Origin: Escherichia coli
GTDB taxonomy: Bacteria > Pseudomonadota > Gammaproteobacteria > Enterobacterales > Enterobacteriaceae
Length of the DNA: 64,000 nucleotides
Assembly (NCBI RefSeq): GCF_030384885.1
Contig: NZ_CP128613.1
Direction: 5' to 3' (one strand)
The position numbers and the translations under genes were made by a program. Below, piece by piece: positions 49,762 to 50,265 of the stretch; the stretch's first letter is position 1, and each line of letters starts with the position of its first letter. Under the pieces are notes generated by a model. The model was not told the DNA's origin, ran no database searches, and was given only the letters and a program-made list of their open reading frames with translations.

Positions 49762-49830
49762 AGATGTTGTTCTGCCAATGTTATGCCGCTACACCCTCAA
49801 CTTACGTTATCCCAACTTGTGACTGTTATT

Positions 49831-49858
49831 CGGCGCTCTATGGAGCGCCTTTTTTTAC
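49831..49858 (+). terminator. Intrinsic terminator of malEFG
   Basis: Stem GGCGCTC/GAGCGCC with loop TATG, then T7; abuts the convergent psiE stop codon. Confidence 0.8.
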
Positions 49859-50265
49859 TCCCGCTTCAGCCGTTTCGAATTACACAGCCATAAGGTGATC
49901 ACCAGTAGCAGGATCGCTGCCGAGTAGATCAACACATCCAGTGGTGATTTATGATCGACGATGATCAAGCGCACAATGGCGGTGATCCCGATATAGACAA
50001 AGTAACGCAAGGGAAAGTGAAAGCCGGACTGAAAGTACTTCACAATCAACGCGATAAATTCGAAATAGAGAAAGTAAACCACCAGCCCTTCCACCAGCTC
50101 ATATTTGCTGGCTTGTTCTGGCGCGAACAGCACATCAGCCAGATGCACCGTTTCTTTGCCGAGGAAGACAACCAAAATCAGGCCGAGGCACAACAGGCCA
50201 AGATTGAGAACGGTCTGCAAAATGGTGGAGATAAACTCCACGCGCGGACGAGAGAGTGACGTCAT
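49855..50265 (-). CDS. psiE: Phosphate-starvation-inducible membrane protein PsiE
   Basis: 136 aa from [19 protein letters not shown] (track ORF begins upstream at 50394); four TM helices. Confidence 0.9.

Follow-up and report, generated by a model that had tools for sequence, protein, structure and literature searches.

Escherichia coli K-12 offers the closest described counterpart of the locus studied here. In MG1655, psiE (b4030), xylE (b4031), malH (b4807), and malG (b4032) lie side by side, with xylE between malG and psiE. The original prediction had taken this gene order as its premise and had named a K-12 chromosome with malG joined directly to psiE as the outcome that would overturn it; K-12 carries xylE at this place, and the premise stands. 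The malG 3' end has itself been described as the source of a small RNA. MalH (Iosub et al. 2020, PMC8081044) is a stable 104-nucleotide fragment of the malEFG mRNA that includes the stop codon of malG together with a Rho-independent terminator; in K-12 it associates with Hfq, and its seed mediates the regulation of ompC, ompA, and MicA (PMC8081044). A reconstruction of gene gain and loss has placed xylE among the sugar-uptake genes acquired by the A/B1 sublineage (PMC6896753).

How does the window, that is, the whole 64-kb stretch of DNA analysed here, compare with K-12? In the window malG is followed directly by psiE, with no xylE, as had been claimed from the sequence: the two stop codons reach 49761 and 49855, and tblastn and blastn searches for xylE gave no significant match.

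Anatomy of the malG-psiE junction

The features of the junction are collected in Table 1. By tblastn, MalG matches the K-12 protein at 100% identity; PsiE is 99% identical to its K-12 counterpart. The TAA stop codon of malG occupies 49759-49761 and that of the convergent psiE gene the complement of 49855-49857, leaving a spacer of 93 bp (49762-49854) between both stops. The coordinates of the two genes match the RefSeq annotation of strain 2013C-4282, which is identical here.

Table 1. Positions of the features at the malG-psiE junction of the window
Feature	Position	Strand	Basis
malG, maltose ABC transporter permease, 296 aa	48871-49761	+	ORF; annotated malG in the identical strain 2013C-4282
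Predicted MalH sRNA, derived from the malG 3'UTR (last malG codons, stop, 3'UTR, terminator)	49754..49856	+	Gapless alignment to K-12 malH (b4807)
Intrinsic terminator of malEFG/MalH (7-bp GC-rich stem, 4-nt loop, T7 tail)	49832-49856	+	Terminator scan and RNA fold
Putative unoccupied insertion point (1,792-bp xylE cassette here in K-12, O157:H7, and other xylE-positive genomes)	49856..49857	.	Break in the K-12 alignment
psiE, phosphate-starvation-inducible inner-membrane protein, 136 aa	49855-50265	-	ORF and 2013C-4282 annotation

A single hairpin lies in the spacer, GGCGCTC-TATG-GAGCGCC at 49832-49849, followed by a T7 run at 49850-49856 whose last two T overlap the psiE stop codon. On the minus strand the same hairpin is preceded by A7 and followed, 3' of the stem, by GAAUAACAG, with no U-tract. 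A bidirectional intrinsic terminator would carry a U-tract on both strands; here the T7 run is on the plus strand only, and the hairpin is thus predicted to be a canonical intrinsic terminator for malG/MalH only, while for psiE it would be a hairpin without a U-tract after it. The two genes had been described as sharing one terminator hairpin. The single hairpin was borne out, but its service as a terminator to both genes was not. K-12 psiE likewise runs into a hairpin without a U-tract on its own strand, although the hairpin next to the psiE stop differs, being the MalH terminator in the window and the xylE terminator in K-12.

Positions 49754-49856 of the window aligned without gaps to K-12 b4807 (4242531-4242633), and the alignment ended at the annotated malH 3' end. 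The two sequences are identical at 100 of 103 positions, two of the three mismatches fall in the terminator loop, and the predicted fold is the same in both. An Rfam search of 49000-50600 (E ≤ 1) returned no family match, and the identification of MalH therefore rests on the K-12 annotation and the published description (PMC8081044). Its place at the malG 3' end, its sequence homology, and its Rho-independent terminator were all found, and together they mark the spacer, as judged from sequence, as a member of the known MalH/malG 3'UTR family. That the 93-bp spacer is a known functional element, the MalH sRNA, had been missed by the original prediction. The window and K-12 versions share position, length, and terminator and are nearly identical in sequence, but the 3' end of the window sRNA abuts psiE, whereas that of K-12 abuts the xylE promoter region.

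The xylE cassette and its distribution in E. coli

The window is collinear with K-12, without gaps from lamB/malK through malG, until K-12 position 4242531 (window 49856). Homology resumes at window 49852, corresponding to K-12 position 4240738, three bases past the annotated psiE end at 4240735. The two pieces of the alignment overlap in a 5-nt T-run, which leaves 5 nt of ambiguity in the junction. The segment present only in K-12 is 1,792 bp long, has a G+C content of 47.6%, and separates the T-run of the MalH terminator from the psiE stop with nothing else in between. In it, xylE is preceded by a promoter region of about 280 bp and followed by a separate terminator hairpin (CAGCACGCCG...CGGCGTGCTG) with a T5 run abutting the psiE stop. 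The borders of the cassette in K-12 are thus both terminator T-runs (T7 and T5), so that the junction sequence alone cannot tell insertion from deletion. Apart from the cassette, which is missing from the window, the two are collinear through malG, the MalH 3'UTR and terminator, and psiE, at about 97% identity on the mal side and about 95% on the psiE-yjb side.

No XylE-like coding sequence was found in the 64-kb window (best tblastn E value, 0.27), and K-12 xylE cassette DNA gave zero blastn matches to it, with no cassette debris. With neither xylE nor its remains in the window, and with a junction like that of the outgroups, the window carries the xylE-negative haplotype. We also looked at the left border of the K-12 cassette for a relic of the psiE 3' end of the kind seen in Klebsiella oxytoca (see below); this candidate was rejected, as no convincing similarity was visible by eye.

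A REP-element polymorphism was seen upstream of psiE, in the psiE-yjbT intergenic region (about 50375-50400 in the window). One REP-like palindrome (about 57 bp extra) is present in K-12, O157, and PCN033 and two in E. whittamii; only the REP half-site CGCATCTGGCAAAAC is left in the window and in ATCC 11775. K-12- and O157-type records annotate this REP as a 144-bp hypothetical ORF.

The contiguous malG-psiE junction was found in 1,786 of 5,426 complete E. coli genomes, and the xylE segment in 3,639 of the 5,426, nearly always as a single copy. The two counts sum to 5,425, the number of genomes with any match, and thus the genomes with the direct junction are, to within a handful, without xylE elsewhere. 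Thirteen of the xylE-positive genomes cover less than 80% of the xylE segment. Strain LAU-OXA has an IS1 inside the segment. The original prediction missed how common the polymorphism is, with the direct junction in 33% of complete E. coli genomes, and that it had been described before.

Among the genomes that we inspected, xylE was present in K-12, E. coli W, and O157:H7 and absent from the type strain, ATCC 11775, and from PCN033. We take these to belong to phylogroups A (K-12), B1 (W), E (O157:H7), B2 (ATCC 11775), and D (PCN033), and the relation between phylogroup and xylE rests on one genome from each of these five phylogroups. The presence of xylE at malG-psiE in O157:H7 adds to the published A/B1 assignment. 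The haplotype of ATCC 11775 and PCN033 is identical to the window in architecture (malG, the 93-bp MalH spacer, psiE), but the window allele is diverged from it by about 3%, because the window comes, as described below, from cryptic clade I.

Where did the E. coli allele of xylE come from? At four-fold sites, the divergence between E. coli K-12 and Citrobacter is 0.50 for xylE, 0.46-0.53 for malG, and 0.48-0.50 for yjbH; between Citrobacter and K. oxytoca it is 0.44 for both xylE and malG. As xylE is as diverged as the core genes, the E. coli allele was not taken recently from Citrobacter or K. oxytoca, and both were rejected as recent donors. A protein search for a recent donor found nothing outside E. 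coli closer than Citrobacter and K. oxytoca. Judged by these divergences, the E. coli allele of xylE would be as old as the genus split. We note that xylE differs between genera at these sites as much as the flanking core genes do, despite a patchy distribution and a demonstrable insertion in K. oxytoca.

In sliding windows, the junction flanks of xylE-positive (K-12, O157) and xylE-negative (B2, D) E. coli differed by 0-0.8%. Since the flanks are virtually identical in the two states, no foreign DNA hitchhiked with the cassette, and there is no evidence of import from a distant donor by homologous recombination in the flanks. More distant XylE genes were found in other settings. In Shimwellia blattae and in a genome labelled Salmonella Choleraesuis they form part of an xylB-xylA / xylE-xylR cluster. 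Entomohabitans teleogrylli carries xylE on the opposite flank of psiE, in the psiE-pgi interval that yjbEFGH occupies in E. coli.

Lineage of the window and the locus in related genera

A 9-kb housekeeping stretch of the window, pgi-metH (54900-63900), is 100.0% identical to the Shiga toxin-producing E. coli (STEC) strain 2013C-4282. Identity of at least 99% over these 9 kb was found in only 2 of the 5,426 records, and the others among the matches listed were at about 96%. The 2013C-4282 genome is a finished genome of Escherichia cryptic clade I, with an average nucleotide identity (ANI) to E. coli of at least 95.9% (Okuno et al. 2023). On this 9-kb identity, together with the value of about 96% to the others listed, we assign the window to Escherichia cryptic clade I, which is sister to E. 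coli sensu stricto. Both arpA and yjaA are annotated beside the region of the window in the 2013C-4282 chromosome. The presence of this pair presumably fits "E or clade I" in the Clermont scheme. Over 3.5-kb flanks on each side of the junction, the window differs by 3.7-4.4% from A, B2, D, and E alike, and these differ by 0.9-3.2% among themselves. The junction allele of the window occurs at 99% identity or more in 17 genomes, including EC42405, another listed clade I strain.

We then compared the locus across species in a PsiE scan with one genome per species, which gave 80 loci; E. fergusonii, E. marmotae, E. ruysiae, and Salmonella are not among them. Nearly all of the 80 loci have psiE and malG as direct neighbours, with spacers mostly of 81-221 bp. 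Essentially the same junction of MalH, T-run, and psiE stop, base for base, was found in E. whittamii (where a few bases at or near the T-run are substituted), E. albertii, Escherichia sp. E1V33, and MOD1-EC7003, and the direct junction was also present in Enterobacter, Kluyvera, K. pneumoniae, Raoultella, C. koseri, and others, that is, in most of the sampled species. Within the scan, K. oxytoca and eight species of the Citrobacter freundii complex were the only ones with xylE in the psiE-malG interval. Their cassettes fill the slot used in K-12, bounded by the MalH T-run and the psiE stop, and have a homologous promoter region and a terminator of their own. Unlike the empty site of the window, these loci are occupied, and that of K. 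oxytoca has in addition a gain scar and an extra 170 bp.

The K. oxytoca scar consists of 16 nt of the native Klebsiella psiE 3' end (TTATTCGCGTTTCAGG) beside the MalH terminator, left of the insert. The functional end of psiE is a slightly different copy right of the insert, making an imperfect 16-nt duplication (L067, 5411-7640). The extra 170 bp lies upstream of the shared xylE promoter. Neither these 170 bp, found only in K. oxytoca, nor the 62 bp found only in E. coli left of the shared promoter had a match among the sequences compared. The K. oxytoca malG 3'UTR also contains a 139-bp repeat element with copies in other loci, which we take to be ERIC-like.

Loss leaves traces of another kind. 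In C. braakii, a 382-bp spacer holds the xylE promoter, two in-frame fragments of the coding sequence, and the xylE terminator (L021, 5411-5794), and this decayed cassette is a clear example of secondary loss at the malG-psiE site. In E. coli PCN061 only the first 280 bp of the cassette are left. The window has neither a loss scar nor a gain scar.

Other material was found in the same slot. C. amalonaticus has a REP/BIME-like palindromic insert between the MalH terminator T-run and the psiE stop (L006, 5411-5596). One psiE-malG slot (L057, 5397-7086) holds a LysR-family regulator and a HAD/beta-phosphoglucomutase-family phosphatase. Another (L039, 5692-10003) holds a PTS IIBC, a nagB-like deaminase, an isoaspartyl-peptidase-like gene, and a MalI/LacI-type repressor.

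Direction of the event and its meaning

Was xylE never present at this locus, or was it lost without a trace? The original prediction had left both open, as a lineage that never acquired xylE or lost it cleanly, and the evidence favours the former. Clade I is a sister lineage, the junction is free of scars in the outgroups, and losses leave remnants; for these reasons we consider that the malG-psiE spacer of the window is very probably the ancestral, never-occupied form of the locus and that the absence of xylE from clade I is primary. From parsimony and from the absence of scars, we infer gain as the probable direction of the event in E. coli. The published placing of the xylE acquisition in the A/B1 sublineage (PMC6896753) points the same way.

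If so, the ancestral spacer would have been a malG 3'UTR encoding MalH and ending in the malEFG/MalH terminator, with its T-run running into the psiE stop. On one branch of E. coli sensu stricto, a self-contained cassette of 1.79 kb, in which xylE has its promoter region and a terminator hairpin and T-run of its own, would have been inserted exactly between the T-run and the psiE stop, giving rise to the carriers seen in A, B1, and E. Clade I would have branched off before this insertion and thus would have no insert.

One potential explanation of a different kind is that the junction of MalH terminator and psiE stop is a recurrent capture site in the Enterobacteriaceae, or that the presence and absence of xylE are an old polymorphism, of which the window would be the empty allele. 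The slot holds xylE in three genera (in E. coli A/B1/E, the C. freundii complex, and K. oxytoca) and unrelated cargo or REP elsewhere, and the divergence of xylE, equal to that of core genes and without a donor, leaves room for an old presence/absence polymorphism. We regard this as unlikely, but if it were true, a very old occupied allele might have been kept as a trans-species polymorphism and spread by homologous recombination in the flanks; alternatively, the terminator T-runs might direct repeated illegitimate insertion.

A clean secondary loss, in which the ancestor of clade I, or of all Escherichia, had xylE and the cassette was removed by a deletion at T-run microhomology or by recombination with an empty allele, is, in our view, improbable. 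The cassette is flanked by T7 and T5, and a deletion from T-run to T-run would give exactly the junction observed. The core-like synonymous divergence of xylE between genera is compatible with long residence at the locus, and the near-identity of the junction flanks in xylE-positive and xylE-negative E. coli sensu stricto shows that alleles recombine freely here. Such a history would, however, require xylE to have been lost precisely and independently in clade I, B2, D, E. albertii, E. whittamii, two other Escherichia species, and dozens of other genera, whereas the losses observed at this site, in C. braakii and PCN061, are untidy. Moreover, the window allele is about 3% off every direct-junction allele from outside clade I, with no sign of the recent import of an empty allele. 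That xylE was collapsed out of, or misplaced in, the window sequence as an assembly or sampling artefact has next to no chance of being correct, as 1,786 genomes finished independently of one another, along with other species, show the contiguous junction and the window is identical over 9 kb to the finished chromosome of 2013C-4282; we found nothing in support of such an artefact.

With primary absence as the preferred reading, what does the empty site mean for the organism? The xylE-negative locus is ordinary: it is a known haplotype in its clade I version, and the status of xylE as a lineage-restricted accessory gene is already published. The empty site is common to a third of finished E. 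coli genomes and to most relatives, and by itself it matters little. XylE is a low-affinity proton symporter for xylose, and XylFGH is a high-affinity ABC system for the same sugar. Because XylFGH provides a second xylose system, xylE-negative strains are expected to retain xylose uptake, and on this established knowledge the strain of the window should keep it via XylFGH, whose locus lies outside the window.

The malG-psiE locus does provide a clean marker that separates xylE-positive (A, B1, and E seen) from xylE-negative (B2, D, and clade I seen) lineages. Our comparisons further suggest that clade I and other Escherichia species have kept the characterised sRNA MalH. Its 3' neighbour varies by strain, being psiE in some and the xylE promoter in others, and this difference is relevant to studies of read-through between malG and psiE and of convergent transcription.
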